Origin: Candidatus Colimorpha merdihippi
GTDB lineage: Bacteria; Bacteroidota; Bacteroidia; Bacteroidales; P3
Direction of reading: 5' to 3'
Assembly (NCBI GenBank): GCA_018066145.1
Contig: JAGHRY010000035.1
Coordinates: 1-53,691, forward strand
Length of the DNA: 53,691 nt
Within the stretch, counting starts at the first letter, position 1. Each line of letters starts with the position of its first letter. A program made the translations under genes and the position numbers. Below the pieces are notes generated by a model. That model ran no database searches. It saw nothing but the letters and a program-made list of their open reading frames with translations, and was not told where the DNA came from. Shown piece after piece: positions 27,002 to 48,353 of this stretch.

Positions 27002-28963
27002 TTACAACTGTAGGAGCTCTTCTAGCGAACCTACTTCCTGACCTGCGGTTTCTTCAGGTACAAGTTGTTCCTCCGGGGCCATGGAGCCCATGTAATCCAC
27101 GGGTTCCTCAGGCATTGGGAGCGGCTCTGCGGGAGGAAGCTGCTCGCCGGGTGCTTGTGCTGGGGCCTGAGGGGCCGCTGCCATCTGGTCCATTTGCTCC
27201 TGCATACCAGCCATCTGCATACCCTGCTGGTCAATCTGCGCCTGCATGTCTCCCATCATAACCTTAGCCATCTGGGTGCTAAGCGAGTCTGCCAAGGTCT
27301 GCGCAATGTCAACGTCTGACAGTTCCAACAGTCGCTTTGCGATGGGCAGCAGGACTTCATTCTCGATAACCTGACGGTTACTGTCGGACCAACCATTGAG
27401 GTTCTGAATGAACGGCTGTGCCAGATCGGTGAGCGCCTGACGCTCCTGGTCTTCCTTCAGTTCCGTAAGGGAACCGACGCGAACCGTGAAGTTGACACCG
27501 GTGGAGGACAGCTCATCGAAGTCTACCTTGATATTCACTCCATCAATCATATCCTCGCAGCCAATGTCAATAAGCTTCAGCCTGGTTTCCTCGTCAACAG
27601 TGATGGTGTGCTCGCCACCCTGCGACTCAATGTACAGGCGGAGTGCCATGTTAGCCCAGTCACCCATGAAGTATTCCACGCGCTTCTGGTACTGATTGAT
27701 GTTGATGGTCTTGTTGTTCTGCTGAGCCTCAACACCGGGGGCAGTCTTGGAGTAACCAACGCCAGCGTCGGCAGCAATGGTACCATCCATGACATTTAGG
27801 TTACGAGTCATGGCGGCAGATACTGCCTCACGGGTCTGTGCCCAGCCAGATAGGATACTGTTGTCAACTTTGACGGGCTCAACCTTGACGTTGTTAGGAT
27901 TGTTACCAATATTCCAAATCTTACGAGGCTCCATCTTGTAGGAGCTAGGGTTAGTTTCCCAGCCACCAACCATAATAGGAGGCTCCATGGCGAGCAGCAG
28001 GTTCTTATAGGCGCTGGTCTGGAACAGGTCGTTGAACTGCTGGTCAGCCAACAGGAACTCAACCTGGCTCAGGCCCAGAGGCCAATCGGGGTCAGGCTCC
28101 AGGCACAGGAAAATCCAAGGGATGCCCTTGCGAGGGTCGTGGTTCTTAACGCGCCTAAACACGGAACCAGTCTTCTCGCAATAGGTGACGAACTCATTGG
28201 CGCCTCGACGATACTCAGTGATAAGTGACACGCTGTGGGTACCAGTGGAGCCCTTGAGCTGGTCGCCAAGCTTCTCGCTTTCCCATTCCTTGCCGGTCCA
28301 AAGCTTGTTCTCGATGATGTACTTGACGGTATCCTCATCGTAAGTAGCGGCTACAGTGTCGGTTTCCTTATCCAGCAGCGCCAGGATTTCATCTTGGGAC
28401 ATGTACTGGCGGAAGTAGACGACCTCAGGCTTACGAATATCGGTGCAATCTGGGTTGATGAAGATGTCTCTCCAATTCTCCAGGTTGTAGGTGATACGAT
28501 AGTCGTCGTCGTAGTCAATCTCAAAGCCCACACGGACAGGTGCAAAGCCGTAGATAAAGGACATCTTGTAGCTGTTGGTCAGATTAGACATCATATCAAT
28601 ACCCTCATACTCAGACCACATGACCTTATTGTCGAACAGGTATTGGAGAACAATGTTCTGCCAGCTATTCTTGTCGTATGGGGTACTCAGCTCGCCATCC
28701 GGGACGCGCTGAATGGTATCACTCAGGGTCTTCCTGAGGATATATTGGACGCTACCTTCGGAGAAATACTTGGTATTGCCCCTGCGGATGCTCCATTCAT
28801 GGATGCTTTTGTTCTTTGCAAGCAGACCATAGAGCTCATGGTGGTTAGTGCGAAGTTGCATTTGCACCTTAGCGGCATCAAACCGGGACTTGAGCTTAGC
28901 AAATCCCGGGTCCTTGATGCTCTCGGCGTCTATGTTCCACTTCTTCTCAGTGGTTTCAGCCAT
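27002..28963 (-). CDS. Portal protein
   Basis: A 653-aa ORF immediately upstream of the capsid gene, TAATG-coupled to the 1,528-aa ORF, with an acidic/Gln-rich C-terminal tail. Called from size and synteny. Confidence 0.55.
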   Translation of the reverse strand: MAETTEKKWNIDAESIKDPGFAKLKSRFDAAKVQMQLRTNHHELYGLLAKNKSIHEWSIRRGNTKYFSEGSVQYILRKTLSDTIQRVPDGELSTPYDKNSWQNIVLQYLFDNKVMWSEYEGIDMMSNLTNSYKMSFIYGFAPVRVGFEIDYDDDYRITYNLENWRDIFINPDCTDIRKPEVVYFRQYMSQDEILALLDKETDTVAATYDEDTVKYIIENKLWTGKEWESEKLGDQLKGSTGTHSVSLITEYRRGANEFVTYCEKTGSVFRRVKNHDPRKGIPWIFLCLEPDPDWPLGLSQVEFLLADQQFNDLFQTSAYKNLLLAMEPPIMVGGWETNPSSYKMEPRKIWNIGNNPNNVKVEPVKVDNSILSGWAQTREAVSAAMTRNLNVMDGTIAADAGVGYSKTAPGVEAQQNNKTININQYQKRVEYFMGDWANMALRLYIESQGGEHTITVDEETRLKLIDIGCEDMIDGVNIKVDFDELSSTGVNFTVRVGSLTELKEDQERQALTDLAQPFIQNLNGWSDSNRQVIENEVLLPIAKRLLELSDVDIAQTLADSLSTQMAKVMMGDMQAQIDQQGMQMAGMQEQMDQMAAAPQAPAQAPGEQLPPAEPLPMPEEPVDYMGSMAPEEQLVPEETAGQEVGSLEELLQL

Positions 28964-31900
28964 TAGTATTCACTCCTCTTGTAAGCGTTGCGGCTGCCTG
29001 CCGTCTGGAAGTCCGGACTCAAGTAGGACTTATTCGCCGAATACGGTGTCTTAGTGTACATGGTGGCCGGCTTGTTAACACTCAAGCTGCCGCCCTTCAT
29101 GTTGTAAATCTTGGGGCTGTATCCAGAGCCACCACCACTGGAGCTGTAGCTATAGGCATTGCCCCCTCCAGAGCTACTTCCATAAGAATTACCTCCAGAT
29201 GAATTATTGCTAGAAAGGTCTGCGTCATCGAGTTTCTTCTGTAGTTCTTCTTTCTTTGCCTTGTATTCATCTTGGAACTCTTTGACAAACTCGGAATCCT
29301 TGTTAGGAACATCATGTCGCTGATAAGCGGTGGTTCCATCGTCACGGAAGGACTCTGTGCGGAAGTCGCCTTCGTTACCTTCCTTGCCAGACTTGGTAGC
29401 AGAGACGTCACGGAAGTAGTCGTTATCGGTTTCAGGGCTAGTGAACCAGCCAAGCCATGTCATTTTGTCACCATAATTGTAACGTTTGGTGTTTCCGTTC
29501 TCGTCATATTGCCCAAGCATTTCAATCTGAGTGCCCTCTTCGACGTTGTATACCTTGGAATCGTAGACAACCCCATCGTATGCCAGCGTGTCAAGTGCTC
29601 TAAAGATTTCACCCTTGTCAGCCTGAACGCCAGCAAGGAGGGTCCAGTAGTCATCAGTGTGACCAGAGAATTCTCCGTTAGCCTTCATTCTACGCAGTTC
29701 AATCTCTCGGTCAGTCAATGCATCCAGTCTGTCGCCGAGCGCATCTTTAACCATGAAAGCGTCTTTAGGGGTGATGACGAACGAATCTTCGGCGGCATCA
29801 ACCTCGTCCTTGTATTGGCTTATGACGTCGAGGATATGTTCCGCGTACATTCTTTCTGCGAGTTCTCCATCTTCAAGATGGTTGCTACTTAGGTACTGCT
29901 CATACCCATTTCCATCAGCAATAGCCTTCAGCTTCTCGTCGGGGTCATGCTCGTATCCGTCATTATTGCGACCATAGCGAGCAAACCCATTGCCATGGAT
30001 CCAGCTGTCAATGTTTCCAAGCAGCGCGAGCAAATCGTTCTTGTCGGCCGCCCTTGCAAACATTCGCTCAAATTCAGAGTCGCGGTATACTTCTTTGCCG
30101 TTCTCATCGAGGCGATAGTTGGGATTACGCCTGAGCTCATCTGACATCAGGTAGTCTTGCATCTGATAGAGACCCATTGGCTTGGTAACGTAGTCAAGCG
30201 TGTATATGAGCTTATCAAGCATGATCTTTGAAGGATCATATTTGCCAATAGACTTAATAGTCTTAGGTAGGTTAATCAATGCATCAACGCATTTAATAAC
30301 CTTATTGGTACCAAATATGTCATAGAAGCCAAAGCTAAACATCTTAGCTGCTCCAGCATAATCGTGCGTTTGATTCGCAAAACATAAAGCCATAGACAAC
30401 GGCGCTGCCCACTGGAATAAGTCATCCATAAACCATGATTGGTGCAATGGAATAGGCTCGTCGCTCCAGGGTACATGAATCTTCCACTCCCATGGATAGT
30501 AATACTTTTTCGGGTCATCAGGTGGCTCAATGCCTCCACTGAGTCCGATAGCTACAGCGAACACCGCAGTCATCAGCGATGTTTGGCCGAGCTTCATCAT
30601 ATCGAAGAGAAGAGCTTTCTTCCAGCCCTTCTCGTCAATGCCGCCAATTTGCAGCTCTTTGAGGTCAGGATTCTTGCTCTTACAAGTAACAATCCATGAG
30701 ATGGTATTGCTAAAGGGTGTAAACAATTCAAAAGCACGGACGCCATAAGTAATGAAAGGTGATCCAAGAATAATGGAAATAAGAGCATTACTCATTCCGT
30801 GCGCTCTAAGCAGGTCATTAACTGTCTCTGACAACGGGCTAATACGTGCAGCGTATAGGTTATTCGTCATAACCAATGCCTGCTTTGCTTCACCATGGAG
30901 CATCAATTCAGAGAAGAACTTGTCTGGATTAACCTTGAATCCCTGTTCAAGTTGCTGAGCAGTTATACCTTTTGTGAACGCCAATTCGCCAAGTAAGGCA
31001 TCAGTGAAGGTGCTCGTCTCAAGCTTATTGAGGCCAAATGCACCTGACTGAATCTTCTCTGAGAAATCATTTACGAACTGTTGTGCCTTCTTTACCTTAG
31101 TAGACTCAACATTAATTGAACCCTCAAGAATAAACTTTTGCGCATTTTGCAGCGTCCACGGTTGACGAGTGTCAGCAAAAGCTTGTACGAAATCGAAACC
31201 AGATCCAGCGCGGAACAACAGCTGTAGCGCTTTAATTCGCTCCTGATGCTGTACGTCCTTGTCTAGCTCTCGTAGATACGGAGTCTTTGTGTATCTCGTA
31301 TCACCGTTACGAAGCAAGGCAGAAGCCATCTTTGTTTCAAGGTTTCCTACACCATGTTCCGGGGCGCCGGTAACCAGTAGTCGAATATCTCCAAGAATGT
31401 GGATAGTTGAAGCGAGAGCTACGAACGATCCAGTCCATGAGTCTATCTTACTAGCAGTAAGCTTGCCGTCTTTCATAACAGCTCCGGCTCGCTGCCTTTG
31501 CTTCAAGATACCCTGTTTAGCTCTCTCGGTGCGCTCTTTGGCACTCTCTGCTGCTTCTGGATAGCCTTCGCCCATGACGTCAGCAAACATGAGGTTAGCA
31601 AGAGCTTCTTCGCCAACACTCCCTTCTCCAACCAATGAGACGCCATATTCAACCGGGTCTGAGTCAGTTAGTCGGCACATGGCCCTAACTTGATTCTCCC
31701 AAGCATAGAGCTTCTGGATGTCGCCGGTAGTATGAACATGCTCAACAAGTGCGTCCCTGGTTGCATTATTAGTAGCAACAAGTTCGTCTTCGAGCTCAGA
31801 GATACTGATTCCTCGCTTTCGTGCAACTACTTCCTTCATCTCTTGCGTCATAACTGCGACAGGGAAACGAGGCTCCTTGTAGCCGCGATGAGCTTCCTTG

Positions 31901-33549
31901 TTCATGTCAGTCATTCCAAGAGGATGTCCCCAGGCATCAGACTGGGAAGAAGCAAGCATGCAATCAATGGCGTCAATATATGCGTTCTTAAACAGCGGAG
32001 TTTCAGGGTCCTTCTTGCCGTCATACATCTTGCCATCTGCGTCCTTCGAGAACGCTAAGGCGCAGCGAACAAACTGGTCAATCAAAGCTCGATTGGTCAT
32101 AGGGTCCAGGTCGTAGAATTCTGCAAACTGCTGTCGGGCAGCTGCTACTTCAGGGATGTCCTGCGAGTATGCAGACTTGGTTTTCTGGTCGTAATGAACC
32201 TTCTGTCCTTCTACGTTAAGGAAGCCAAAGAGGAAGTCTCGCGCAATAGCGTCTTGGTACTCAAGGTCCTTGCGTGCCTTGCGCTCACGAACGATGTCGG
32301 CCTGGCCCTCTTCAAACATTCCGGTCTGATAGTAATGAGCCATTGCTGCCCAGTATTCAGGGTCCTTTGCCTGAATCTGCTCGTCGATCGACTGCTTGTA
32401 GTCAGACTGTCCCAGCCTTGTTTCATTGAGCCATTTAGCCAGATCGAGCTCAGTCATAGAACTCTTACCTGGCAAGCTATCAAGGTAAGCAGACCTATTA
32501 TTTACAGGAATATGCTGACCCTCAAGCGCCTCGCCATCCTCGTTGTAGGCCGTGTTTGCGTCGTTGGTAGCAAAGCCTGCAACAGATGGCTTCTCAAGTC
32601 CATCGCCTTCAATGTCAGCTAGAGTAAGCGGTTGGCCCTCTTCCCCGACAACTACGGGAACCTCGTCAGCTATGAACCTGTTGAGGTCTTTAGGTCTAGG
32701 AGGCTTGTCTTTTTTGCCTTTCGCTTGGCTATGTGCTGCGTTAGTCTCAGCAATAAGGTCTCTGAATTGCTCTTCAGTCCAGCCGCCTTCTTCGTCTAGC
32801 CAGTGGGGAACCTCTCCCCTTAGCCACTTACCGGCTTGGTGCTTCATGTCCCTATCCCAGTTACCTGTAGGATGGGTGAGCCACCAGTGCGAGCCGTATT
32901 CCTTGTGTGCAAGGTTTTCCGGCCTAATCTTTGAGTTCATCTCTGGATGCTGTTTTAGGAATTCTCTCCAGTATCTCAATGAAGACTCTGGGTTTGTGTC
33001 TAAGAAATCACGGTAACCGTGCTTTGCGGCATAGTCGTAAGATGCCTTCTTGGACATCATCTTTCTGGACTTGCTTGCATTTGCTGTAGAAACTGTAGGA
33101 GCTATAGGCTCTATAAGCTCGTTGGCTGCCTTCTTCCTCTTATTGTGTTCTTCGTCATCTTCTTCATACAGCATGCCACCAGACTGGTTATCTTGTGACA
33201 ATGTACGAACCGAGGCATCAACCGGGGCTTGTTCTATTTGACTAGCGGTGTGAGGTGTTCCAGTATCAAACCCAGCTGGGGCCGGCTCGGTTGTACCCGA
33301 GTCGGCCCTCTTAAATGCTAAGTTCTTAGGTAGTGGAACAGCACTGCTTTCAGGTTCCTCGACAGCAGCAATCTCGTCTTCGTCGGCAACACCAGAGTAA
33401 TTGCCTTCGGTTAGAGAGTTCACGATACGACGACTCGTTCCCTGGGTGCGTCCCTCAAGATGCTGGTTCTCGTCTATAACAGCGCCCTCTGCCTGTTCGG
33501 TGGATGTCTTGTTTTTTCTGAATCCACCTTGCATCTGAGATAAGTTCAT
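28963..33549 (-). CDS. Giant internal virion / ejection protein candidate (1,528 aa)
   Basis: RBS AAGGTGG. Low-complexity N-terminus, hydrophobic segments (..LISIILGSPFITYG.., ..LMTAVFAVAIGLSGG..) and a Gly/Ser/Tyr-rich C-terminus. Confidence 0.5.
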   Translation of the reverse strand: MNLSQMQGGFRKNKTSTEQAEGAVIDENQHLEGRTQGTSRRIVNSLTEGNYSGVADEDEIAAVEEPESSAVPLPKNLAFKRADSGTTEPAPAGFDTGTPHTASQIEQAPVDASVRTLSQDNQSGGMLYEEDDEEHNKRKKAANELIEPIAPTVSTANASKSRKMMSKKASYDYAAKHGYRDFLDTNPESSLRYWREFLKQHPEMNSKIRPENLAHKEYGSHWWLTHPTGNWDRDMKHQAGKWLRGEVPHWLDEEGGWTEEQFRDLIAETNAAHSQAKGKKDKPPRPKDLNRFIADEVPVVVGEEGQPLTLADIEGDGLEKPSVAGFATNDANTAYNEDGEALEGQHIPVNNRSAYLDSLPGKSSMTELDLAKWLNETRLGQSDYKQSIDEQIQAKDPEYWAAMAHYYQTGMFEEGQADIVRERKARKDLEYQDAIARDFLFGFLNVEGQKVHYDQKTKSAYSQDIPEVAAARQQFAEFYDLDPMTNRALIDQFVRCALAFSKDADGKMYDGKKDPETPLFKNAYIDAIDCMLASSQSDAWGHPLGMTDMNKEAHRGYKEPRFPVAVMTQEMKEVVARKRGISISELEDELVATNNATRDALVEHVHTTGDIQKLYAWENQVRAMCRLTDSDPVEYGVSLVGEGSVGEEALANLMFADVMGEGYPEAAESAKERTERAKQGILKQRQRAGAVMKDGKLTASKIDSWTGSFVALASTIHILGDIRLLVTGAPEHGVGNLETKMASALLRNGDTRYTKTPYLRELDKDVQHQERIKALQLLFRAGSGFDFVQAFADTRQPWTLQNAQKFILEGSINVESTKVKKAQQFVNDFSEKIQSGAFGLNKLETSTFTDALLGELAFTKGITAQQLEQGFKVNPDKFFSELMLHGEAKQALVMTNNLYAARISPLSETVNDLLRAHGMSNALISIILGSPFITYGVRAFELFTPFSNTISWIVTCKSKNPDLKELQIGGIDEKGWKKALLFDMMKLGQTSLMTAVFAVAIGLSGGIEPPDDPKKYYYPWEWKIHVPWSDEPIPLHQSWFMDDLFQWAAPLSMALCFANQTHDYAGAAKMFSFGFYDIFGTNKVIKCVDALINLPKTIKSIGKYDPSKIMLDKLIYTLDYVTKPMGLYQMQDYLMSDELRRNPNYRLDENGKEVYRDSEFERMFARAADKNDLLALLGNIDSWIHGNGFARYGRNNDGYEHDPDEKLKAIADGNGYEQYLSSNHLEDGELAERMYAEHILDVISQYKDEVDAAEDSFVITPKDAFMVKDALGDRLDALTDREIELRRMKANGEFSGHTDDYWTLLAGVQADKGEIFRALDTLAYDGVVYDSKVYNVEEGTQIEMLGQYDENGNTKRYNYGDKMTWLGWFTSPETDNDYFRDVSATKSGKEGNEGDFRTESFRDDGTTAYQRHDVPNKDSEFVKEFQDEYKAKKEELQKKLDDADLSSNNSSGGNSYGSSSGGGNAYSYSSSGGGSGYSPKIYNMKGGSLSVNKPATMYTKTPYSANKSYLSPDFQTAGSRNAYKRSEY

Positions 33550-33580: not shown

Positions 33581-36500
33581 TTATACCACGGATGAGCTGC
33601 CTTTGTAAGCAGTTAAGACTCGCTCTTGAGCCGCCTGTCCAACTTGCTCGTTGAGTCCAAGCTTAGAGAATACAGCGTTTCTAACCTTACAAACGAAGTC
33701 GTCTTCCGGCGTGAACCGTCTACGAGACTTCTTCTTGTTAACTTCGTCTCGCGCCTCATTAAGCCTTCTAGCGACATACACCCTGGTTCTGTATTCGTAG
33801 TTAACCCACGGCTTCAAAGTGTATGCACCGTTAGCGAGGAAGGCGTCAAGGTCCTGAGATGGCCTAAGGAATATAGCCTCTCCATCTTCTCCATTGATCC
33901 AGTCTTTAACCATCTTGTCTACTTGTCCAAACTCAAAGCCAAGGTCGGTGGCCTCTGTAACCCTGTGCCTCGGCTCTGCCTTGGTGGTTCGCTCGGTCTT
34001 TTGGTCTGATGCACCAAAGCTTTCATCGGGTGCGTCAACCATCTCGAACTTACGAAGCAACTTGTGCCTCACTGAATCGGGAGCAGTCCCGGACACAGCA
34101 TAACGGAGAGCGGTGACGAAGTCCATTGGAGTACCCTGTCCTCCATGCAGCATCATCTGCAAGGACAAGAACTCCATCTGAGCAGCAGACAAACCGGGTC
34201 GAGTGGTCATCGAGTTATCTTCACTGAAGAAGCCCCAAGACGCATAAATATTCTCCCAGGTATAGCCAGGCTTGTTGCCTTCCTTCCATTCGACTTGCAT
34301 CTGCATAACAAGATTATTCTTGCCTGCATCTTGGCAACAACGGAACAAATGATTCATGGAACCATCGTCCGTGTTCTCGGGACAGAACTGAGGCATCATA
34401 GTATTAAAGAAGCGGAGGAATCCGTCTTGCCACTCGATACTCATTTCCATCATCATTTCCCACTCAAAGAAGTTGTTAGCCCTCTTTTGGACACCATCGA
34501 CCTCATACTTGTTAGCAAAGAAGTCACTAGGATTGACGTTAATCTTCCTAAGCCTCTTAACTACCTGCTTCATCCAAGCATCAAGATCGGGGTCTGTATG
34601 GAACTGAGTAACAGAATCAAACCTCTTTGGGTCAACTCGGCCCGCCAATAGTTCCTTCTTTAGCTCGGCATCGAGAGGAAGGAACCCTTCATGCTCTGCA
34701 ATATTGTAACGCCAGCGGTCGTTCTTAAACGTCATACCCATCATAGTTAGCATGGTGTCTCGCCTACGGTTGGAGCCAAGGCGACGACCAGATGTGGTGG
34801 CTTCAGCAACGAATACGTCAACGTTTGTACCATCAGACAGCGCGTGGTCCTTAATCCACCTAGTAAACATCATTGTCTTATTGGCCGCACAGAAGCCCTC
34901 AAAGAACTTGAAGAAGCGGTCTTTCATACTTGCTGTGTTAGACCACTCCATAGAGATGCTTGAATTAGCATCATCGAACGCCAAGTCTGTGACCTTGTAC
35001 TTAATCGGAACATCTCGGGACGTATGCTTATATTCCGGGAACGGAATAATAGGAGCATAGTAGACTTCCTTGATTGCCGAGTTGTACGGGTCGGTCAAGG
35101 TAACCTTTGCAAAACCAATACATTCACCAGGTCTACCTTCCTCTAAGAAAGCTTGGTCGGGGTTCTTTGACCACTTATCGAGGAACGCATTAATCAGCTT
35201 GGTATTCTTCTTGATAACAGCGCTCGCCAGGTTGTTGGCTTCGTTGACTCTGAAGTCAATATTGATAGTGTCGGGGTCGCCGTATGCGATGTGTTCGATG
35301 TCCTCTACGGTGCAGACCTCGTACTTAGCACGCCACATAGAGTGGTCGCTGCCATGTCCATCACTAGAATCAAGGGTGTCCATGAACATAGTCTGAACAT
35401 TGTCTGTCCAGGCAGTTCCAGCCTTCCTGGTTCCAGCGCTATTGAAGTGGACCTTATCGCCGAAGCTCTCGGTGCCAAAAGCACCTGCGTCTGCGTAAGG
35501 ATTACGACCATGAGCGTCCTCACACACAAGCGTCAGGTTGCTGGGGTCGCCATTCCAACTAGCAGAAGTGCACGTACCAAAGCCGTTTAGAATCATGTCG
35601 AAACACGGGACGCCGTTATATACGGAATTACCCATCTGCTCTACAACGTAGCCAGCGAAATCAGGATACCTCTTCATCCACACACCGAGGACGTTGTCGT
35701 CCTCGAAAAGCAGCGATGTTCCAGCCTCGAACGCTTCCTTAAACGCACGGTCTATAGACTCAGGAGACGCATCGGAGCCAATCAGAACGACGTTTGTGAT
35801 CCCGGGAACCTTATGTACCTCATAAGAATCAGCTGTCACGTATCCAACCATCTTGTAGCCAAAACCAATTCCGACATCGCTGGTGTTCTTCTTCTTATAC
35901 TCATCCTTAAGCCTGGTGCTGAGCGAGGACAACTGCTTAGGAGTCATAATCTCAAGCTCTCCATTTTGCTCGGCGAGTCTCTGGATGAGATTGTAGTTAC
36001 GCTCAAAGGAGCTTACTCGCTTATCCTTTGCTCCATACTTAGTCTGCTCACGCATTGATACGAAGCAAGGAACAGAGAGGACGATACCCCAAGCATCGGC
36101 TTCGCCGGTCATGCCTGTTGCGTCAGCCTCAGTCACCATCAGGTCCAGGACATCGTTCATCACTTCAGCGGCGTCCTTATTGTTCTTAACTTCACTCAAG
36201 TCAGGAAGCGTAGCTGCGACCGTCGTGTTCAGTCGGGAAGAAATCTGTCGCAAGGAACGGATACAGAACGACGGATACTCCTCGCCGGTTTCCTCGTCGG
36301 TTTCAATCTGAGGAACAACAATCCACCTAGCAAGGTTCATGTAGTGCTCAAGCTGCATGCTCTTGTAACCAAGCTTCTCGTTTGCTGCCATCATACGCTT
36401 AGCGTACATCGAACGAACCTTCTCGATTGCCAGCTCCGGGTCTACACCTTGGTTCAGCATGTTCCACCAGATTGTAGCAACTCCAGGATTGTTAGGGTCT

Positions 36501-39500
36501 TCGTTGAACATCCAGGACTCAAAGCTGCTTTCGTTAAGATCGAACCTACCTCGCTTAGAGATACTGTCTGTTCCATCGTCAGAGGTCTTCTTGATCTTCA
36601 GGTTGTTCTTCTCTGAAGAATCCTTACGCTTCAAGATAAAGAAGTTGGAACTACTTGTAATCATCGGCGAGGTGTCCTTACCTTTACGCATAATGCGCAG
36701 CAAGGGGTCAGTGAACTCTTCGTTAGGTGCATAAACGATAGCCTCAGACTGTCCATCATAAGATACACCTTCGGACGTCGGGCTACCAACGAGCCTTTGC
36801 CGTACCTCTTCGTCTGTGTTCGCGTCAACCTTCAGGTAACAGTCAGGACTAAACGGCATCAGCAATTGGATAAGACTAAACTGCTTAGTCATAACGCCTT
36901 CGTTACCGGTACTGATACTGGTCTTGGCGCCATTGTGGGTGTCAACACATTTCCAGAACACTGCGACGGAAGCATCGTCTACCTCAGCCCAGGACCAATC
37001 AGCCTCAGAACTGCCTCTTTTGTACACTTCTTGGACTTCTGCTGCATACTTCAGTACCAGTTCGTTTAGCTTAGACTTGGTCCTATCTGGCAGCTTGAGG
37101 TCAGGAAGTGCAGGGTTATCCAAGTCGATTGCCGCCAAAGTCTCAATAAGCTGGTCTTTAGCTTTAATAATATTAGTCTTCATGCCGCCTCGACCAATAT
37201 TGTCATGCTTGAACAATAGATGGCACATGCCGTTGAATCCAGGATGGTCGGTCATTATCTGGAAGGCTTCTTCCTGTCGCGTCCACCTCTTCTCCGTATT
37301 TGCAGCATACTTTACTCGACCCTTCTTGTCGATATACGCAGAAGTAGCAACGAATAGATTACACAGTTGAGGATACTCTTGAAGGACAGTGAATAGGTCT
37401 GCGTCAGATTCGATGCCAAGAGCTGACCTGCTTAGGATACAGGGGTTACCGTAGTCATCGTAGGTCTGAAGAACCTGGTCAAAAACAAGGACATTAATCA
37501 GGTCTCGCTTGGTGAGGCGGTCGTAACCAACCTGTTCCATAACAAAGTCGTCACCGGATTCAATCTCCTGAATGAAACCACCGATCTTGTTGTTTGCGAG
37601 TGCGGTATAGAGATGTTCCTGCTGCTCCTGCTGCTGTGACTTTTCAGACTCAGAGTAAGTAGGAAATGCTGTTGACGCTGTAGCATCTGCCCAGATGTCT
37701 TCTGATACAGCTTGCAAACGACGCGGGAACATACGAATGTTATTAAGAGCCTTTTCGAACTCGTCAAAGTCAGGTTCGCCGTCTTCATTCTTGAACACAA
37801 ATGGGTGCTCGTTGATTTCACCCTTTTTGTTCTTGTATGGAGACAAGACATCCATAGCAGACTTGAGACCTATGCCACTAGCTTCTTCCCATCCAACGAT
37901 ATTTGTTCCTGCGTAGTTACTAGCAGGGTCAAGTTCGAGCTCGTACAGGACAGAATTCTCGTGCATCTTAATCCAGCCACCATGGTCGATAACCAGGTCT
38001 TTGATGATGAGCCTCTTGGTCTTACCCGGAACGGTTACGTCCAGCATGAAATCATCCAGCGTCTCCCAGTTGCCAATCATCTCTGGAGTACAGGATGTCG
38101 CGAGCGGTTCCATACTGAGCGACATGCGGCGCAAAGTCTTTGCTCCACCCTTAATTCGATGACAAAATGCACGGAACTGTTCATCAGTAAGGCTTGCCAG
38201 AATTTCCCATGTATCACTAGAGGACTTGAGTACGGCCTGTTCGTTAGCAAGGTACTGTTCCAAGACCGCCTGCTGCTCTTCAGATTCACATTCAGCAATC
38301 TGTTGGCTTAGCTTAGCAATACGCATTGTACGCCAGTCGTAAACCATAGCCATACGAATCGAATCCAAATCGTATCCACGAAGCATCGCTTGTCCGTAGT
38401 AGGACTTCTCGAAACCAACGGGGTTGTCCATGTTGTAATAAGCAAACATGTCAGGATGGGTTCCAGCCAACACGTCTACATACTTTCGGGATAACACATG
38501 AACGTTCTGCATTGAAGTATCATCAAGGCTGTTCCTCACAGAGCGATAGCGCTCAAGGATGTTCTTCATAGACGCAAAAGCTTGCACCGAAACCTTCTCG
38601 TAATCTGCCGCAGCAGAAGTGCGGGAGTCTGCTAGAGACAAAATGAAGTCAACCCAACCATCAACGCCGTTGCCTACAATGTTGTCACGAGACTTATGCT
38701 TCCGGTTAGTTGAGAAGTTAAAGTGGTTCTTGTATGCAAACTCTCGAATAGTCTTATGCTTATAGATGTGAGCTACGTATAGCTCTGGGGTTTCGTTCTT
38801 CTTACCTTTGTTCTTAATGTAAAGAGAAGAATCGTAGGGGAGGCTATCGAACTGTTCTCCATTGCGCGTCTTCTTCTTGAGGGTAGACTCTCCTGCGAAA
38901 TGGATACCATTTATAAGCTTGTCTCCAATAATGGTACCAAAGGAATAATCGCCATAAACATCCAGGAAAGGCTTGACAAATTCATTATTCTTCGTAAGAA
39001 GCTTGCCATCCTTGCTCAAGGTAATGTTGATTTGCTTCATGTCAGTACCCTCGATGACAGACAGGTTGACGTCAAGAGACTTACTTGCCAGGTCTGCACG
39101 GGAGATGTACTCATTCCAAGCATTAGCGAAAGCCTTAAAGAACTCTGCTGGTTCTCCATTGTACTTCGGGTCGTTCGGTAGGCCGCATCCATACTTGGGG
39201 TCATGGATGATGAAATTGCGCTTCCTCTCTGACTTCTTCAATTTTGTGGTATCGAAGGTTTTAGCAGATGCAGCTTCGGCCATTAGACCGATAGTGGTCA
39301 TCGCTGCGCTCTTGTACATGCCATCTTCGCCAACAAACAGACTCGGGTTTCGCTTAATCGACTTCATAATTGAAGCAGTCTGACGGAACTGAACTGCACC
39401 CTTCGGGTCGTCTTCAAGTTCCAAAGCGTGAGACACTAGGAACTCACCCCAGTTAGCACCGAGGGTTCCGGTTGTTGCCTGGGCTGCAAGCTTCCACTGC

Positions 39501-41083
39501 GCCCTCTCGGTATCGGTAAGTTCTGCCAGCTCAGCAAAATCGTTCACGTCTTCGATGGCCTGTTGATTCTCCGGATTGTCCATAATGGTATCCATCTGAA
39601 TCTTGAAGGAAGAATCAACTCGTTCATACAGAGACTCGATACAAGTTGCTACCTTCCGTGCGCTTCTGTCGCATCCTTCATTGAGGTAATGGAGGAACAG
39701 CAGTGCAGCCTGCTCTTGCTTTTTCTTGTCGTTATTTCTCTCGCTCAAAAGGGTTTCAAAGTTCTGAGCAGCGAGGTCAACGTATTCTTCTTTTACGTCA
39801 AGCTTAACGAGCCATTTCTTGAAAGTCTTGACAGATTCTCCTACCTTGATGTTGATGGGGGCAAAGTAGTCCCAGTCAATCAAGCAGTCTCCACCGACGC
39901 CAATAAGATACTCAATAGGGTTCCTGGCTTGGTCTACGTACTTGCCATCAAGATGCACGGTTGCGTTGTCGCCGTCGAAGTCAGCATTGAAAGCCTTAAC
40001 AGCCAACGGGTGCAGACGAATACCGTCTCCGTAATGGCAACGAAGGATACGAGCCTGGAAAGACTGAGGATCAGAAGTAGGGTTCTTGGTTACGGTAGCC
40101 CACAAAGCAACAGTATCGAGTGCCTGCTTGAACTCAGTAATAGACTCCGTTGCAATCTCTTCATACGTAAACTCATCTTCCGTAAAGGTTCGCAATGGGG
40201 TTTCTGCGTTCCGGTTGTACGCTTCGATTACCTTGTTAAGACGGTACACAATCTTGTTACCAGGCTGCTGGAGTGCCATCAAGAGCCAGTTTGAACCAAT
40301 GGAAACATCCATCAGTCCAATCTTAGTGTCAGGTATTGCTACGAGCTGACCGCTAAGATTGTTGCCGTTAGGAATCGTAGACCTGTTATCGACCTCGCTC
40401 TTAATCTTTTTCATGTGCCACTTGGTTGCTCGCGACCCACGCTTGCGACCGAGAGTTTGGTCTAACGGCTTTTCTATCTTGTCATAGAGGCCCTTAGTCT
40501 TAACACTGGTAAGCTCTTCTTTTGCGCGCTTTTTTGAATCCTTAGGGTCGCTAGGACTCTGTGCAGCGGCAATCTTGTTCGGATTTCTGCGCTTAGTGGT
40601 GCTAGGTTTAGCAGACTTCTTCCCTTGAGTTTTTGCCGTTTCCGGAAGATTCGGCTTCTCGACCTCAACAATGTCGGCTCCCTTGATGGCTTCTTGGGCC
40701 GGAGCCGCCGGCGCTTCAGCAGCGGTGTCCTGCATGTCAGACAGCTTAGGTCTTACGTATCCGCTTGCGCTCTGCTGCTGCTGACCATTCTTAGATGCAG
40801 AGAAGGCCACCGTTTTGGGGGTGGCCTTCATGGTGTCAGCTGAGTCAGACAGAGACGCCAAGCTAGGCTTTTCATAGGTAGTGTCAGCAACCACAGGCGG
40901 GACTTTTTCAGTTACCACAGGTGCTTGTTCGGTCTGCTCCTGTTCGGTATTGGTAACAATAACGTCCTTAGAGTAACCGCCTGTCTTACCTTGTAGTGGT
41001 TGTTCCTCGGTTACACCATCTGCTGCTTGCCGTTGAGCCTCTAGGCTCTTTTGCTTTGCTTGAAGTTCTGCGACGTTTGGCAT
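33581..41083 (-). CDS. Giant single-chain RNA polymerase candidate with beta-prime-type DPBB (2,500 aa)
   Basis: RLHPLAVKAFNADFDGDNATVHL is encoded at 39961-40020. The upstream half-barrel SGQLVAIPDTKIGLMDVSIGSNWLLMAL is at about 40255-40375. TAATG-coupled to the 729-aa ORF. Confidence 0.7.
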   Translation of the reverse strand: MPNVAELQAKQKSLEAQRQAADGVTEEQPLQGKTGGYSKDVIVTNTEQEQTEQAPVVTEKVPPVVADTTYEKPSLASLSDSADTMKATPKTVAFSASKNGQQQQSASGYVRPKLSDMQDTAAEAPAAPAQEAIKGADIVEVEKPNLPETAKTQGKKSAKPSTTKRRNPNKIAAAQSPSDPKDSKKRAKEELTSVKTKGLYDKIEKPLDQTLGRKRGSRATKWHMKKIKSEVDNRSTIPNGNNLSGQLVAIPDTKIGLMDVSIGSNWLLMALQQPGNKIVYRLNKVIEAYNRNAETPLRTFTEDEFTYEEIATESITEFKQALDTVALWATVTKNPTSDPQSFQARILRCHYGDGIRLHPLAVKAFNADFDGDNATVHLDGKYVDQARNPIEYLIGVGGDCLIDWDYFAPINIKVGESVKTFKKWLVKLDVKEEYVDLAAQNFETLLSERNNDKKKQEQAALLFLHYLNEGCDRSARKVATCIESLYERVDSSFKIQMDTIMDNPENQQAIEDVNDFAELAELTDTERAQWKLAAQATTGTLGANWGEFLVSHALELEDDPKGAVQFRQTASIMKSIKRNPSLFVGEDGMYKSAAMTTIGLMAEAASAKTFDTTKLKKSERKRNFIIHDPKYGCGLPNDPKYNGEPAEFFKAFANAWNEYISRADLASKSLDVNLSVIEGTDMKQINITLSKDGKLLTKNNEFVKPFLDVYGDYSFGTIIGDKLINGIHFAGESTLKKKTRNGEQFDSLPYDSSLYIKNKGKKNETPELYVAHIYKHKTIREFAYKNHFNFSTNRKHKSRDNIVGNGVDGWVDFILSLADSRTSAAADYEKVSVQAFASMKNILERYRSVRNSLDDTSMQNVHVLSRKYVDVLAGTHPDMFAYYNMDNPVGFEKSYYGQAMLRGYDLDSIRMAMVYDWRTMRIAKLSQQIAECESEEQQAVLEQYLANEQAVLKSSSDTWEILASLTDEQFRAFCHRIKGGAKTLRRMSLSMEPLATSCTPEMIGNWETLDDFMLDVTVPGKTKRLIIKDLVIDHGGWIKMHENSVLYELELDPASNYAGTNIVGWEEASGIGLKSAMDVLSPYKNKKGEINEHPFVFKNEDGEPDFDEFEKALNNIRMFPRRLQAVSEDIWADATASTAFPTYSESEKSQQQEQQEHLYTALANNKIGGFIQEIESGDDFVMEQVGYDRLTKRDLINVLVFDQVLQTYDDYGNPCILSRSALGIESDADLFTVLQEYPQLCNLFVATSAYIDKKGRVKYAANTEKRWTRQEEAFQIMTDHPGFNGMCHLLFKHDNIGRGGMKTNIIKAKDQLIETLAAIDLDNPALPDLKLPDRTKSKLNELVLKYAAEVQEVYKRGSSEADWSWAEVDDASVAVFWKCVDTHNGAKTSISTGNEGVMTKQFSLIQLLMPFSPDCYLKVDANTDEEVRQRLVGSPTSEGVSYDGQSEAIVYAPNEEFTDPLLRIMRKGKDTSPMITSSSNFFILKRKDSSEKNNLKIKKTSDDGTDSISKRGRFDLNESSFESWMFNEDPNNPGVATIWWNMLNQGVDPELAIEKVRSMYAKRMMAANEKLGYKSMQLEHYMNLARWIVVPQIETDEETGEEYPSFCIRSLRQISSRLNTTVAATLPDLSEVKNNKDAAEVMNDVLDLMVTEADATGMTGEADAWGIVLSVPCFVSMREQTKYGAKDKRVSSFERNYNLIQRLAEQNGELEIMTPKQLSSLSTRLKDEYKKKNTSDVGIGFGYKMVGYVTADSYEVHKVPGITNVVLIGSDASPESIDRAFKEAFEAGTSLLFEDDNVLGVWMKRYPDFAGYVVEQMGNSVYNGVPCFDMILNGFGTCTSASWNGDPSNLTLVCEDAHGRNPYADAGAFGTESFGDKVHFNSAGTRKAGTAWTDNVQTMFMDTLDSSDGHGSDHSMWRAKYEVCTVEDIEHIAYGDPDTINIDFRVNEANNLASAVIKKNTKLINAFLDKWSKNPDQAFLEEGRPGECIGFAKVTLTDPYNSAIKEVYYAPIIPFPEYKHTSRDVPIKYKVTDLAFDDANSSISMEWSNTASMKDRFFKFFEGFCAANKTMMFTRWIKDHALSDGTNVDVFVAEATTSGRRLGSNRRRDTMLTMMGMTFKNDRWRYNIAEHEGFLPLDAELKKELLAGRVDPKRFDSVTQFHTDPDLDAWMKQVVKRLRKINVNPSDFFANKYEVDGVQKRANNFFEWEMMMEMSIEWQDGFLRFFNTMMPQFCPENTDDGSMNHLFRCCQDAGKNNLVMQMQVEWKEGNKPGYTWENIYASWGFFSEDNSMTTRPGLSAAQMEFLSLQMMLHGGQGTPMDFVTALRYAVSGTAPDSVRHKLLRKFEMVDAPDESFGASDQKTERTTKAEPRHRVTEATDLGFEFGQVDKMVKDWINGEDGEAIFLRPSQDLDAFLANGAYTLKPWVNYEYRTRVYVARRLNEARDEVNKKKSRRRFTPEDDFVCKVRNAVFSKLGLNEQVGQAAQERVLTAYKGSSSVV

Positions 41084-43272
41084 TAGATATTCGTCCTGTT
41101 CTTCTCGTGGTTTACAATCCTTTGCACGTCAGGTGAAAGCACCTTATAACTTGGTTCTGGGGTATCATACCCGAGTTCATATTCATGCTTCTGGGCGGCC
41201 CATTCTCCGTTTCTACGGGCTCTTATACCACCGATTCCACCCATCAGGCCACCAAGCAATCCGCCACCAAGCAATCCCTCAGGAACTTGGAGTGCAGCAT
41301 TTCTGAGCCTCTTGTTAACCGGAGTGTCTTCGTTGACCTCGCCGGTGTAGAATCCGTTTTCGTCGTAAACATCGTCTGCATACCAGCCTTTTGCGCCGTT
41401 TGATGCGTATTCCCAGGCTGGATTCATGGTAACTTCCTCCATTGCCTCGGATACTCCAGGCTCTACGAAGTGCTTGAACACAGGAGACTTCGACGCTTTA
41501 GGCGCCATCTTCTGCAAGAGTTTTCCATAGACACCGCCGCCATTTGCACCAACGGAACCTAACGTTGATTCTCCGACTGCGGAAGCAAGATAAGCTGCTG
41601 GTGCTGTAACATATTCACCTACGGGCTCATACTTGTCGTTAGAGCTCTGCATAGGATCGACACCGGCTCCAGACAAGACTGCTCCAGTCGCCATGTTCGC
41701 TAACTGAGTAGGCGGAGTGAACCAGCTGGCAGACTGAGTAAACAAGTCAGCAATCTGTTCCAGTCCAATGTTGACACCGCTAATGTCTCCATCGTCGTTG
41801 TACTCCACCAAACCAGGAGTAGCGTAAGAAGCTCGTCCGAATGGAGACCATCTGACATTACTGCCCGAGTTCTCTATATACTCGTTCTGCTCCTCCTTTG
41901 TTTTTTTGGGGTTGATTCTGTTGAGTAGGCTGGGGTCCTTGGTGTAATTAGCTAGTTCGTTGAAGTTAATCTTATGCCCAAGGATGTCAAGCGGTTTAAA
42001 TTTAACTTGGAACAGCTCGTCGTAGCTTCGACCGTCTTCAGTGTCGTAGCCAGCCGGTACAGAAGAACCGTCTTCCAGTTGTACATAAATCATTCCGCTG
42101 TATGGATCGGTAACAATATCCATGATAGAGTTACCGTCGAAGGTGTAGCCGGTTTCTTTACAGGTAACATCGCTCTCTTTGAGAGCGAACATGTCACCAT
42201 TGGCTTCTTTCATCATGTCGGACAGGCGATTGAGTTCCTTCTCAATAGCTTCATCAACTTCTTCTACGCTGCGCACCTCGCCATCAAGGTTAACCGTAGA
42301 AAGCTTCTCAGTTGCCTTGGAACGAATGTCGCCAATACCTCTTATAAGTTGGTTGTAGGCATCCGATGCATCGACAGCTGCTCGTCTAAACATTGTTTCT
42401 TGGTCTGGAACGTAGGACTGATAACCGTATTCGGCTTCAAGTTCTGTCTTACTTAACACGTCATCGTCGTCAACGTAAGCCAAACCCTTGACCATATCGT
42501 CCAGACCTTGCTTCTCTGCTTGCTTCTTAGCCTCAGCACCAGTGATAAACGGGCTCGTCCTGTTTGAATAGGTGTTTGTTCCGTTGTCAATGGCGTCTAA
42601 TCCGGTCTTACTAAGGTCGGGAGCAGCCGAGAAGTTCTCAACCTTACTAGCGTCGCCCATAAGATAGCCACCATCGCCCTGCCATGCCTCGGTCATAGGC
42701 TTCTTAATGTCCTCACCGAAGTATTTTCCCCAATCAAAGTCGCCATTTCCGCGTCTTCCAAGGGTAGAATTAGGTGCAATGATGTCGGTGTTAAGCTGTT
42801 CCTCTCCCTGAAGCTGTCCGAGGTCGTTAACCCAGACGTCTTCTTCCTCTTCTTCGTCGTACTGTTCAACGGGTCTGGCCTCACGCGGCGCTGGCTGAGG
42901 TGCGGGAGCCCCGTAATCTACCAAAAAACCTCCATCTCCCACCATTTGCCCTGGGGAATCGGGGTTTTCGGCTTCTGTTTCTTGCTGGAAACTGGTAGAC
43001 TCCATCTCAGATGGCTCGTTTGGGGTACCTTGTATTACATTTTGACTATAGTTTGTACCCCAATTTGGCTGATTATAGGACTGTTGACTAGGCTGAACCG
43101 GGGGTTCTTGGTTTTGCTGGTAATACAGCAGGTCAACGGCTGCCTCATTAGCTGCGACGTCGTCGGCATGACCAGAACCTTCCAGAATCTGGCGGTTGAT
43201 GTCCTTAATCTTGTCCAGGCCGTAACTCTGTTGGCCAATATCCGGAACAGAAGCGGGATCAAATCCTGCCAT
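41083..43272 (-). CDS. Large internal virion / ejection protein candidate (729 aa)
   Basis: RBS GGAAGGAG. C-terminal glycine-zipper segment LLGGGLLGGLMGGIGGI. Confidence 0.5.
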   Translation of the reverse strand: MAGFDPASVPDIGQQSYGLDKIKDINRQILEGSGHADDVAANEAAVDLLYYQQNQEPPVQPSQQSYNQPNWGTNYSQNVIQGTPNEPSEMESTSFQQETEAENPDSPGQMVGDGGFLVDYGAPAPQPAPREARPVEQYDEEEEEDVWVNDLGQLQGEEQLNTDIIAPNSTLGRRGNGDFDWGKYFGEDIKKPMTEAWQGDGGYLMGDASKVENFSAAPDLSKTGLDAIDNGTNTYSNRTSPFITGAEAKKQAEKQGLDDMVKGLAYVDDDDVLSKTELEAEYGYQSYVPDQETMFRRAAVDASDAYNQLIRGIGDIRSKATEKLSTVNLDGEVRSVEEVDEAIEKELNRLSDMMKEANGDMFALKESDVTCKETGYTFDGNSIMDIVTDPYSGMIYVQLEDGSSVPAGYDTEDGRSYDELFQVKFKPLDILGHKINFNELANYTKDPSLLNRINPKKTKEEQNEYIENSGSNVRWSPFGRASYATPGLVEYNDDGDISGVNIGLEQIADLFTQSASWFTPPTQLANMATGAVLSGAGVDPMQSSNDKYEPVGEYVTAPAAYLASAVGESTLGSVGANGGGVYGKLLQKMAPKASKSPVFKHFVEPGVSEAMEEVTMNPAWEYASNGAKGWYADDVYDENGFYTGEVNEDTPVNKRLRNAALQVPEGLLGGGLLGGLMGGIGGIRARRNGEWAAQKHEYELGYDTPEPSYKVLSPDVQRIVNHEKNRTNI

Positions 43273-47758: not shown

Positions 47759-47813
47759 GGCTGGGAACCTAGCTTACCTTTAGCTCCGCTAAAAGTAACC
47801 AATGTTCCCAGCC
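47759..47813 (+). other. Second long-stem element
   Basis: A perfect 10-bp GGCTGGGAAC / GTTCCCAGCC enclosing CTTTAGC-tcc-GCTAAAG. Confidence 0.55.
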
Positions 47814-47815
47814 TT

Positions 47816-47877
47816 GGCGCCCCTTGGGCGCCTTAGCGCTGCACCCTTCGGGTAGCAGCTTAGCTACCTATGGTAGC
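47816..47877 (+). promoter_or_regulatory. Hairpin cassette R1 upstream of early gene 1
   Basis: GGCGCCC-ctt-GGGCGCC (47816-47832), TTAG, GCTGCaCCC-ttc-GGGtaGCAGC (47838-47859), GCTACC-tat-GGTAGC (47863-47877). Confidence 0.5.
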
Positions 47878-47903
47878 ATATAGTATGTAGAAAGGAGCCT
47901 ACC

Positions 47904-48182
47904 ATGGCAGCAGCAGAGAAGAAGCTCTTTAGGGGTCGCAAGGTCGAAATCGAGTATGTCGAGAACGCCATCCTCAAGTCCGCCCGCGATGTCACCCGCA
48001 AGAGCGACGGTGAAACCTTCCAGGTTGTCACCTTCGTTCTTGAGACCGGCGAGACCGCAGACATCGTCTTCCCCAATGGGTGGGCACCCATCGGGTTCGA
48101 CATGTACTACGGTGACGCCTACACCGGTGGCTGGGTCGAAACCGACGAGGGCAAGCATCTGTTCCAGATGCAGCCCGCCTAG
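47904..48182 (+). CDS. Early protein 1 (92 aa)
   Basis: RBS AAAGGAG. Followed by its own terminator. Confidence 0.7.
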   Translation: MAAAEKKLFRGRKVEIEYVENAILKSARDVTRKSDGETFQVVTFVLETGETADIVFPNGWAPIGFDMYYGDAYTGGWVETDEGKHLFQMQPA

Positions 48183-48190
48183 ACTCCCAT

Positions 48191-48218
48191 GAGTGCACCC
48201 AAGTGGTGCACTCTTTTT
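48191..48218 (+). terminator. Rho-independent terminator after early gene 1
   Basis: A perfect 9-bp stem GAGTGCACC/GGTGCACTC with a 5-nt loop, then TTTTT. It is nested in an outer 8-bp pairing AGACTCCC/GGGAGTCT (48181-48228). Confidence 0.75.
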
Positions 48219-48306
48219 GGGGGAGTCTGATTCTAAAAACAAGGAAGACCTACGACCTATCATGTGACTTCCTTGTGCAAACTAGTGACAATCATGTTAC
48301 CAAGAA

Positions 48307-48353
48307 GGCGCCTTCCCAGGCGCCTTAGGGCTGCTCCCTTTGGGCGCCAGCCC
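48307..48353 (+). promoter_or_regulatory. Hairpin cassette R2 upstream of early gene 2
   Basis: GGCGCCt-tccc-aGGCGCC, TTAG, GGGCTGcTCCC-ttt-GGGcgcCAGCCC. The leader down to the RBS is similar to that of R3. Confidence 0.5.

Follow-up and report, generated by a model that had tools for sequence, protein, structure and literature searches.

Giant RNA polymerases (RNAPs) that are injected into the host cell occur in three settings, namely the N4-like phages, whose enzyme has a T7-like fold, the crAss-like phages and P23-45, whose enzymes are divergent two-barrel proteins, and the jumbo phages, whose enzymes are split into several subunits. We analysed here a giant open reading frame (ORF) of 2,500 amino acids (aa), located at positions 33581..41083 of the minus strand in contig JAGHRY010000035.1 (assembly GCA_018066145.1, Candidatus Colimorpha merdihippi), the whole stretch of which, 53,691 nucleotides (nt), is called the window hereafter. 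This ORF starts with an ATG and encodes a protein of 281.6 kDa, a putative single-chain two-barrel RNAP. We propose, with a probability of about 0.6, that this protein is an injected DNA-dependent RNAP made of a single chain, in which a barrel of the beta' type comes first and a barrel of the beta type comes last.

The virion RNAP of N4 (vRNAP or gp50, about 3,500 aa; Schitoviridae) has the T7-like single-subunit fold and is unrelated to the two-barrel enzymes. Searches of Pfam, PHROG and PDB with the window protein gave no match to a T7-like fold, only matches of the beta' type, and the likeness to the N4 enzyme is functional only (a giant polymerase of a podovirus capsid). According to PMC13434306, the N4 polymerase is carried in the capsid, and its ejection is accompanied by that of two further ejection proteins. 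A single-chain two-barrel enzyme is found in phi14:2, a crAss-like phage whose gp66 (2,180 aa; PDB 6VR4), the gene of which lies among the structural genes of this podovirus, is packaged, injected and used to transcribe the early genes, most of its residues being of undetermined fold. Single-chain RNAPs also include YonO of SPbeta (about 100 kDa) and gp96 and gp64 of P23-45, gp96 being borne by the virion in fusion with the tape measure protein. They belong to a divergent clade of phages, plasmids and QDE-1, in which the similarity to multisubunit RNAPs is limited to a few residues. The window protein is like them a single-chain phage homologue of multisubunit RNAPs, and YonO also comes from a Gram-positive host, but their cores are much smaller and YonO is not a virion protein. 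As for the virion RNAPs of jumbo phages, they are multisubunit. By analogy, the window protein would work like the virion polymerases of crAss-like phages and N4, but it belongs to neither family.

A beta'-type catalytic barrel in a large protein family

The double-psi beta-barrel of the beta' type (DPBB-A) occupies aa 228-402 of the giant ORF (39878..40402, minus strand). The Pfam domain RNA_pol_Rpb1_2 (PF00623) was recognised at aa 331-381 with 29 bits, for a gathering cut-off of 25.3. Searching PDB with the single sequence retrieved beta' chains only (expectation values, E, from 6e-4), and a profile of 42 family members retrieved only the beta'/Rpb1 largest subunits, with a best E of 8e-9. 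When the family's N-terminal part was aligned by hhalign with residues 330-500 of Escherichia coli beta' (taken from NC_000913), the probability reached 97% (E = 8e-11, 154 columns) and aa 228-402 were paired with beta' 339-500, including the first half of the barrel.

The structural comparison gave the same picture. The AlphaFold2 model of aa 228-700, built from 42 sequences, had a mean predicted local distance difference test score (pLDDT) of 79, with values of 85-97 over the first 270 residues, and produced 575 Foldseek matches in PDB at E <= 1e-3 (best E = 2.3e-7, probability 1.00). The best 50 were all chains of bacterial beta', of archaeal A' or of the eukaryotic Rpb1 type, and the alignments to largest RNAP subunits covered 400-550 columns for this 473-aa query. 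They extend over the helical region that follows the barrel (aa 403-700; 38984..39877, minus strand), which Foldseek co-aligned with the largest subunit. Neither gp66 (6VR4), nor QDE-1 (2J7N), nor the DNA polymerase PolD was present among these 50 matches. The segment aa 228-402 is a complete and cell-like catalytic barrel of the beta' type, extending well beyond a short motif, and its similarity to beta' is well outside chance. The preliminary description of the window, made from the sequence alone, had called this barrel near-cellular, and this is a fair label because the top 50 structures were all cellular largest subunits and lacked both gp66 and QDE-1. Membership of the two-barrel superfamily rests on DPBB-A, for which the cellular largest subunits are the closest among the structures searched, whereas gp66 is closest to QDE-1. 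The window protein shares with cellular beta', A' and Rpb1 a complete DPBB-A with the K/R-x-P and NADFDGD motifs, but differs from them in being one giant chain encoded in a phage structural operon, with no genes for partner subunits.

Two segments of the barrel, LSGQLVAIPDTKIGLMDVSIGSNWLLMAL (aa 243-271, nt ~40271-40357) and ARILRCHYGDGIRLHPLAVKAFNADFDGDNATVHLDG (aa 344-380), had been pointed out from the start, the second one containing the metal-binding loop NADFDGD (aa 366-372; 39968..39988, minus strand) with the three aspartates D368, D370 and D372. The motif K333-x-P335 is located 32 residues upstream of this loop. In the family, the loop reads NAD-x-DGD (NAD[F/Y/A/T/N/H..]DGD), position 4 being a glycine in almost every member, and together with K-x-P it matches the filter '[RK]xPx{20,100}DxDxD' applied by Chaban et al. 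(PMC10770324). The crAss-like enzymes differ in this respect, gp66 and its orthologues having DFD[IV]D, with Ile or Val where the window protein has the glycine of DFDGD. The preliminary description had already noted that the full NADFDGD was kept, unlike in crAss-like phages, and had assigned the upstream segment to the barrel's first half, in the very register that hhalign recovered. It had also suggested a fold comparison around residues 230-450, for which Foldseek gave the beta'/Rpb1 matches reported above, in agreement with Pfam, the PDB profile search and hhalign.

A word-indexed search detected three relatives of the window protein (27-41% identity). With an exhaustive HMMER search, using a profile of aa 1300-2360 picked to exclude the barrel, we obtained at least 157 representatives of clusters at 50% identity, 131 of which had E < 1e-30. 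Most members are 2,200-3,000 aa long, the longest ones noted being P0107 (4,538 aa) and P0112 (4,850 aa), and their identity to the window protein is about 15-40%. Those that we looked up were all unnamed metagenomic proteins, and the contigs that looked complete measured 51-55 kb. The conservation spans aa ~230-2340, the first ~225 and the last ~150 residues being variable. The N-terminal ~225 aa (40409..41083, minus strand) are of low complexity, rich in Q, A, P, K and T, with a conservation of only 0.18-0.26 in the family alignment; our guesses for this part are a propeptide, a linker or a nucleic-acid-binding tail. The predicted mass is 282 kDa for the full-length protein and 257 kDa without this variable part.

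The aspartate triad was kept in 125/128 members and both K333 and P335 in 126/126 (all family residue counts come from the local hmmbuild/hmmsearch alignment), although the members share only ~15-40% identity with the window protein, which points to selection for catalysis as judged from sequence conservation. One could nevertheless imagine that the giant protein serves mainly inside the virion or in ejection, as a DNA conduit, and that its beta'-like domain is a relic without catalytic activity. No homology to polymerases is recognisable in about 1,900 of its 2,500 residues, its gene lies within the structural block, and three members (P0127, P0146, and P0148) have lost the triad (DFGGD, SISDNTG, and NVSGSNG, respectively) while retaining the rest of the protein, which hints at a second, non-catalytic role. 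This alternative is improbable because such a conservation of catalytic residues, which includes the near-invariant K2059, K2069, R2100, and N2127 of the C-terminal part besides K333 and P335, would not be expected in a relic.

The barrel could also serve another type of nucleotidyl transfer, such as priming of replication, RNA synthesis on an RNA template by an RNA-dependent RNA polymerase (RdRP) of the QDE-1 type, or DNA synthesis of the PolD type. The two-barrel enzymes do include RdRPs and PolD, and neither a DNA polymerase nor a primase was recognised in the window. We consider this very unlikely, the barrel being nearest to the DNA-dependent cellular beta'/Rpb1, with no QDE-1, gp66, or PolD in the Foldseek top 50, and the flanks of NADFDGD being of the transcriptase type.

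Among 50,697 phage records, tblastn found no match to the giant protein and no family match for P0085 and P0025 either, P0025 matching through its DprA-like insert alone. Literature searches retrieved no paper linking this family, or the giant gene of the Microbacterium cluster EK phages discussed below, to an RNAP. Chaban et al. (PMC10770324) reported 23 families in two clades, and the supplementary data of this paper list no Microbacterium or Arthrobacter phages. The present family is probably a large and undescribed family of virion polymerases, which may still be among these 23.

Some members carry fused enzyme-like domains: YpsA/SLOG (PF06908) at the C-terminus of P0003 (L003 10001-17626), NADAR (PF08719) plus YpsA/SLOG at the C-terminus of P0004 (L002 10001-18124), and the DprA-like domain inserted at aa 943-1150 of P0025. 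These extra domains may be injected effector modules.

The candidate beta-type barrel and the proposed order of the two barrels

The best-conserved positions of the family alignment outside the beta'-type barrel cluster near the C-terminus, where K2059 is found in 141/142 members, K2069 in 140/142, G2085 in 137/143, R2100 in 142/142 and N2127 in 146/146. These residues, together with D2089, belong to a candidate second barrel (DPBB-B) at aa ~1985-2131 (34691..35131, minus strand), the core of which corresponds to aa ~2055-2131. The consensus K-x9-NK-x14-NGTPID-x10-SR resembles GDK(1065)MAGRHGNK(1073)...NGTPVD...PSR(1106) of E. coli beta, and the spacing between the glycine and the arginine is 15 in both. 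With an alignment of 46 members (aa 1930-2345) and the single E. coli RpoB sequence, hhalign returned this register as its sole match (P = 0.035), aligning K2059, K2069, and R2100 with K1065, K1073, and R1106 of beta. The same register was recovered (P = 0.0025) against a profile of 81 RpoB fragments, a shallow one since our scan of contigs for RpoB yielded gammaproteobacteria only. When the profile of the whole 2,500-aa family was scanned against RpoB, both best stretches fell at aa 2067-2131. The AlphaFold2 model of aa 1930-2345 (pLDDT 86, predicted template modelling score 0.73) placed the two lysines on beta strands and started a long helix just past R2100, a strand-then-helix layout which we take to be that of the corresponding region in beta. 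From the sequence register and the model, aa 1985-2131 probably form a beta-type barrel, in which the Lys/Lys/Arg block would have the fold and the role of its counterpart in beta.

This position is ~1,000 residues beyond the beta-like barrel that the preliminary description had placed at 37770..37840 (minus strand, aa ~1082-1106). The latter did not hold up, being the least conserved stretch examined in the family alignment (mean 0.26, with gaps). Another beta-like stretch at aa 1201-1238 ('YD..G....LSR') was also discarded, as it had P = 0.34-0.49 and lacked the upstream lysines.

If aa 2055-2131 are a barrel, then the order is beta' followed by beta, unlike in gp66, which the preliminary description had taken as the model. 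In gp66 the beta-like barrel comes first and is joined to the beta'-like barrel by a connector of 140 aa, and in QDE-1 likewise both barrels are linked by a short connector, whereas in the window protein the N-terminal barrel is the beta'-like one and 1,700 residues separate it from the candidate beta-like barrel downstream. The two phages also differ in their hosts, Bacteroidota for phi14:2 and Gram-positive bacteria for the window phage.

Several of our results weigh against the proposed two-barrel enzyme. Foldseek with the aa 1930-2345 model found no beta or Rpb2 chain in PDB (best E = 1.3), and in BFVD the top match, the poxvirus Rpb2 homologue RPO132, was non-significant (E = 0.22), as was another viral RNAP fragment at rank 4 (E = 0.93). 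Pfam detected no Rpb2 domain in any of the 46 C-terminal members, a profile of four sequences (aa 1900-2360) retrieved nothing relevant from PDB and Pfam, and the hhalign probability of the match to beta was only 12% with the 81-sequence RpoB profile. At the sequence level, hhalign against beta' detected no similarity outside the barrel region, and this includes the bridge helix and the trigger loop. Finally, we know of no precedent for a chain in which beta' comes first and 1,700 residues separate the barrels, and this order differs from that of gp66, the only single-chain enzyme with which it was compared.

These results could be explained if the giant protein supplied half of an active site only, namely the beta'-like one, with the Lys/Lys/Arg block being something else and the second barrel coming from another phage gene or from the host beta. 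This explanation would fit the fact that neither Foldseek, nor Pfam, nor the PDB searches recognised a beta-type barrel in the C-terminal part, the order unlike that of gp66 and the multisubunit nature of the jumbo-phage virion RNAPs. Yet the giant protein itself contained the only RpoB-like signal of the locus, which falls at aa 2067-2131 on residues of 99-100% invariance. The families of the two coupled neighbours (729 and 1,528 aa) had no RpoB-like stretch in the same hhalign scan, and both ORFs were without Pfam or PHROG match. Scans of the larger ORFs of the window with PHROGs and Pfam revealed no other RNAP subunit and no sigma-like gene, in line with the preliminary description. A protein with only half of the site thus seems unlikely to us, and we continue to favour two barrels in a single chain.

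Between the two barrels, a conserved block GAKTxxSTG(V/I)EGxET at aa 1376-1402 (36878..36958, minus strand; mean conservation 0.56, G1396 95%) could, on sequence grounds and speculatively, be a bridge-helix-like element; hhalign against beta' found nothing there. A motif G-K-N-x-x-F-R, which we call invariant, is present at aa ~561-567 (F566 in 114/129 and R567 in 127/129 members). In its extended form, G-K-N-x-x-F-R-x-x-A-x-x-A-K (aa 558-577, window 39353-39412), it resembles KGKQGRFRQNLLGKR of beta' (hhalign P = 0.05). This stretch directly precedes the barrel in beta', whereas its counterpart here is ~190 residues past the catalytic loop, which could be due to chance or to rearrangement. 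In the C-terminal part, the consensus GYNFAE (aa ~2122-2131, window 34691-34720; N2127 in 146/146) resembles GYNFED of beta (aa 809-814; hhalign P = 0.019). The GYNFAE comes after the Lys/Lys/Arg block, whereas GYNFED comes before it in beta, and its acidic residues are not conserved.

Gene order, cultured relatives, and probable packaging in the virion

The giant ORF is flanked on the same strand by the 729-aa ORF upstream (41083..43272, minus strand) and by the 1,528-aa ORF downstream (28963..33549, minus strand), followed by the portal gene (653 aa; 27002..28963, minus strand; phrog_332). Next comes a gene for a protein of 597 aa carrying a Big_2 domain at its C-terminus (25135..26928, minus strand), the probable major capsid protein according to Pfam and PHROG. 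Reading the junctions showed TAATG overlaps both between the 729-aa and 2,500-aa ORFs and between the 1,528-aa ORF and the portal gene. The products of the 729-aa and 1,528-aa ORFs, the latter placed by synteny, are probably co-packaged or ejection proteins. A lysis cassette precedes the 729-aa ORF in the window, and a common order was recovered in four relative loci: an SPP1-type holin, the endolysin, two small genes, a gene of ~730-765 aa (at the position of the 729-aa ORF, in L001-L004), the giant gene, a gene of ~1,500 aa, the portal (653 aa) and the capsid candidate (593-597 aa).

A direct repeat of 282 nt at the ends of the window (1-282 and 53410-53691, 97% identical) gives a genome unit of 53,409 bp for this uncultured phage. 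The repeat may be genuinely terminal, or it may have arisen where the assembly of a circularly permuted genome overlaps itself, the mismatches then being variants within the population. The endolysin encoded upstream of the giant-gene block combines Amidase_3 with three CW_7 repeats, and those of the relatives have GH25, Amidase_3, PG_binding_1 or CW_7 domains, in addition to the SPP1-type holin; judging from these sequences, the host is Gram-positive. The preliminary description had thus been correct about the position of the ORF upstream of portal and capsid, the TAATG overlaps, the genome of 53.4 kb and the Gram-positive host.

It had not mentioned the closest cultured relatives, the podoviruses of the EK/Burro type with their 13-kb gene. 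According to the portal and the best-ranked terminase (27-28% identity), the nearest cultured phages are those of Microbacterium cluster EK (Eekayvirinae), the singleton Burro and Arthrobacter phage MissAmericana, the tblastn matches to their annotated portals having E values down to 9e-43. The EK phages and Burro are podoviruses whose circularly permuted genomes of ~54 kb consist of two divergent gene arms. Their 'most striking feature' is a gene that exceeds 13 kb (>4,400 aa) and immediately precedes the portal gene; its role is 'unclear', and its product has no similarity to N4 vRNAP (Jacobs-Sera et al. 2020, PMC7302621). Burro virions contain a protein of ~250 kDa that was attributed to gp27 or to a processed part of it (PMC7302621). 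The window phage and these phages are alike in genome type, divergent arms, homologous portal and terminase and a giant ORF upstream of the portal, but the giant is a single fused ORF in the latter, never annotated as a polymerase, and corresponds to three ORFs in the window.

The three giants that we retrieved (Burro, ArMaWen, and MissAmericana; 4,434-4,491 aa) each have a DxDGD motif at aa 800-871 (GGDFDGD, TQDNDGD, and DGDWDGD). With hhalign, aa 324-409 of the family aligned on Burro 820-915 (E = 0.002), a weak and short match that was the sole notable one. The matches of the neighbour families to Burro gp27 were weak but colinear, the 729-aa family aligning with its N-terminal 600 aa and the 1,528-aa family with its C-terminal 1,200 residues, including matches at aa 3336-3863 (best P = 0.0015). 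The three window ORFs together (729 + 2,500 + 1,528 = 4,757 aa) thus plausibly correspond to the fused ORF of 4,434-4,491 aa. To the points against our interpretation must be added that the homology of the family with the EK/Burro giants, based on such short sequence matches, is marginal. The family hidden Markov model detected nothing in the three giants at default settings and reached only E ~0.05-3 with filters off, and a regular expression for the K..K..G..D..R block found none in the EK giants. The wider proposal, that all these proteins, including the 13-kb gene of EK, Burro, and MissAmericana, are virion RNAPs of ~51-55-kb podoviruses of Gram-positive hosts, with a reverse-fused beta'/beta core of cellular type, is a tentative one that we hold with less confidence than the reading of the window protein itself.

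From the conserved gene order and by analogy with Burro gp27 we infer that the giant protein is packaged in the virion and ejected. Packaging is argued, indirectly, mainly because the three ORFs match the fused Burro ORF and because of the ~250 kDa band of Burro virions, which is about the size of the window protein (282 kDa, or 257 kDa). In addition, the 597-aa Big_2 protein occupies the slot of Burro gp29, an abundant virion protein of ~57 kDa.

Alternatively, the giant protein could be an active phage RNAP that is not packaged and is made after infection to transcribe middle or late genes. This is the case of YonO of SPbeta, which is made after infection for middle or late transcription, and the same has been reported for P23-45 gp64, also a non-packaged polymerase. 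All the polymerase features reported here would hold equally for such an enzyme, and non-virion two-barrel phage polymerases do exist. Against this, the gene lies inside the late/structural operon, two genes upstream of the portal, in every relative examined, and an RNAP expressed with the late genes alone could not start its own programme. Moreover, a mass of 282 kDa with 1,900 non-polymerase residues recalls the N4 and crAss virion enzymes, and the positional counterpart in Burro is virion-associated. An unpackaged enzyme has therefore only a small chance of being correct in our opinion, and injection remains our preferred interpretation.

As a side observation, the 4,434-aa gp30 of MissAmericana (L008 2616-15920), encoded upstream of the portal and having GDWDGD at aa ~800, is annotated 'tape measure protein', but it is more likely the counterpart of the EK/Burro giant protein. 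P0107 and P0112 are ~2,000 residues longer than the window protein at their C-terminus and may be fusions with the downstream gene of ~1,500 aa, between the split and the fully fused layouts. No match was obtained by phmmer between the 1,528-aa protein of the window and P0107 or P0112, nor between the 729-aa and 1,528-aa proteins and any of the family members and giants.

Proposed infection mechanism and early-arm elements

By analogy with N4, phi14:2 (a crAss-like phage), and P23-45, we suggest the following mechanism. The polymerase would be built into the capsid of the ~53.4-kb short-tailed phage of a Gram-positive host and would be ejected through the short tail with the DNA, probably along with the 729-aa and 1,528-aa products. 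It would then transcribe the first (early) genes without the host RNAP; we infer both this activity and the genes concerned. Catalysis would be carried out by the Mg-binding loop D368/D370/D372 of the N-terminal beta'-type barrel, faced by a beta-type barrel from the C-terminal part in which K2059, K2069, and R2100 would hold the nucleoside triphosphate and the 3' end of the RNA, the two barrels being ~1,700 residues apart in one chain. The host RNAP would presumably take over for the later genes; the scans of the larger ORFs revealed neither a sigma-like gene nor a second polymerase gene.

If this is true, the window protein would represent a fourth solution to the injection of a giant polymerase, with a single chain, a near-cellular beta' site and a permuted order in small podoviruses of Gram-positive bacteria, present in at least 157 clusters of unnamed proteins. 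It would provide a testable function, in phages that are cultured, for the 13-kb gene that makes up 25% of the genome in EK/Burro and has been called 'unclear' since 2020. Early transcription by an injected, rifampicin-independent polymerase would then be common among podoviruses of Gram-positive bacteria. Finally, a beta'-first fusion that is nearest to the cellular enzymes would bear on the origin of the phage single-chain polymerases, by capture from cells or predating cells.

The best promoter candidates for such a polymerase would be three copies of a two-hairpin element located ahead of the first early genes (47808..48755, plus strand), which we identified by pattern matching and in relatives. 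The copies are at 47808-47906, 48299-48384, and 48670-48755 (plus strand), each 30-45 nt ahead of the ATG of one of the first three plus-strand early genes. The first hairpin (47816-47836, 48307-48328, and 48678-48699) follows the pattern GGCGCC-N(3-8)-GGCGCC-TTAG, with three matches for zero expected, and the second one is GCTGC...TTCG...GCAGC. Related elements were found in the early arms of two relatives (L001 1780-1890 and 2232-2342; L003 2815-2925 and 3150-3260; all on the minus strand). They share an invariant core GCTGC.C..T.GGG, and compensatory changes are seen to some extent in the first stem. The promoters recognised by the vRNAP of N4 are hairpins that precede a small number of early genes. 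As a working hypothesis, the phage polymerase may use the elements of the window as promoters or 5' leaders; they could instead be RNA leaders or terminators, in which case they would tell against this part of the mechanism.

The change from the minus strand of the late arm to the plus strand of the early arm falls near 47.4-47.9 kb and not at 49.4 kb, because the plus-strand ORFs 47904-48182, 48382-48639, and 48753-48914, which have Shine-Dalgarno sequences, look genuine, and the longer minus-strand ORFs that overlap the early genes at 47.9-49.4 kb look spurious. The early/middle arm also contains a single tRNA-Met (CAT) gene at 7725-7798 (plus strand). A probable tail protein of 865 aa (14342-16939, minus strand) has three tandem repeats of 54 nt and a pair of 116-nt repeats, at 16625-16786 and 16047-16609 (minus strand), and the adjoining ORF of 534 aa contains collagen-like repeats.

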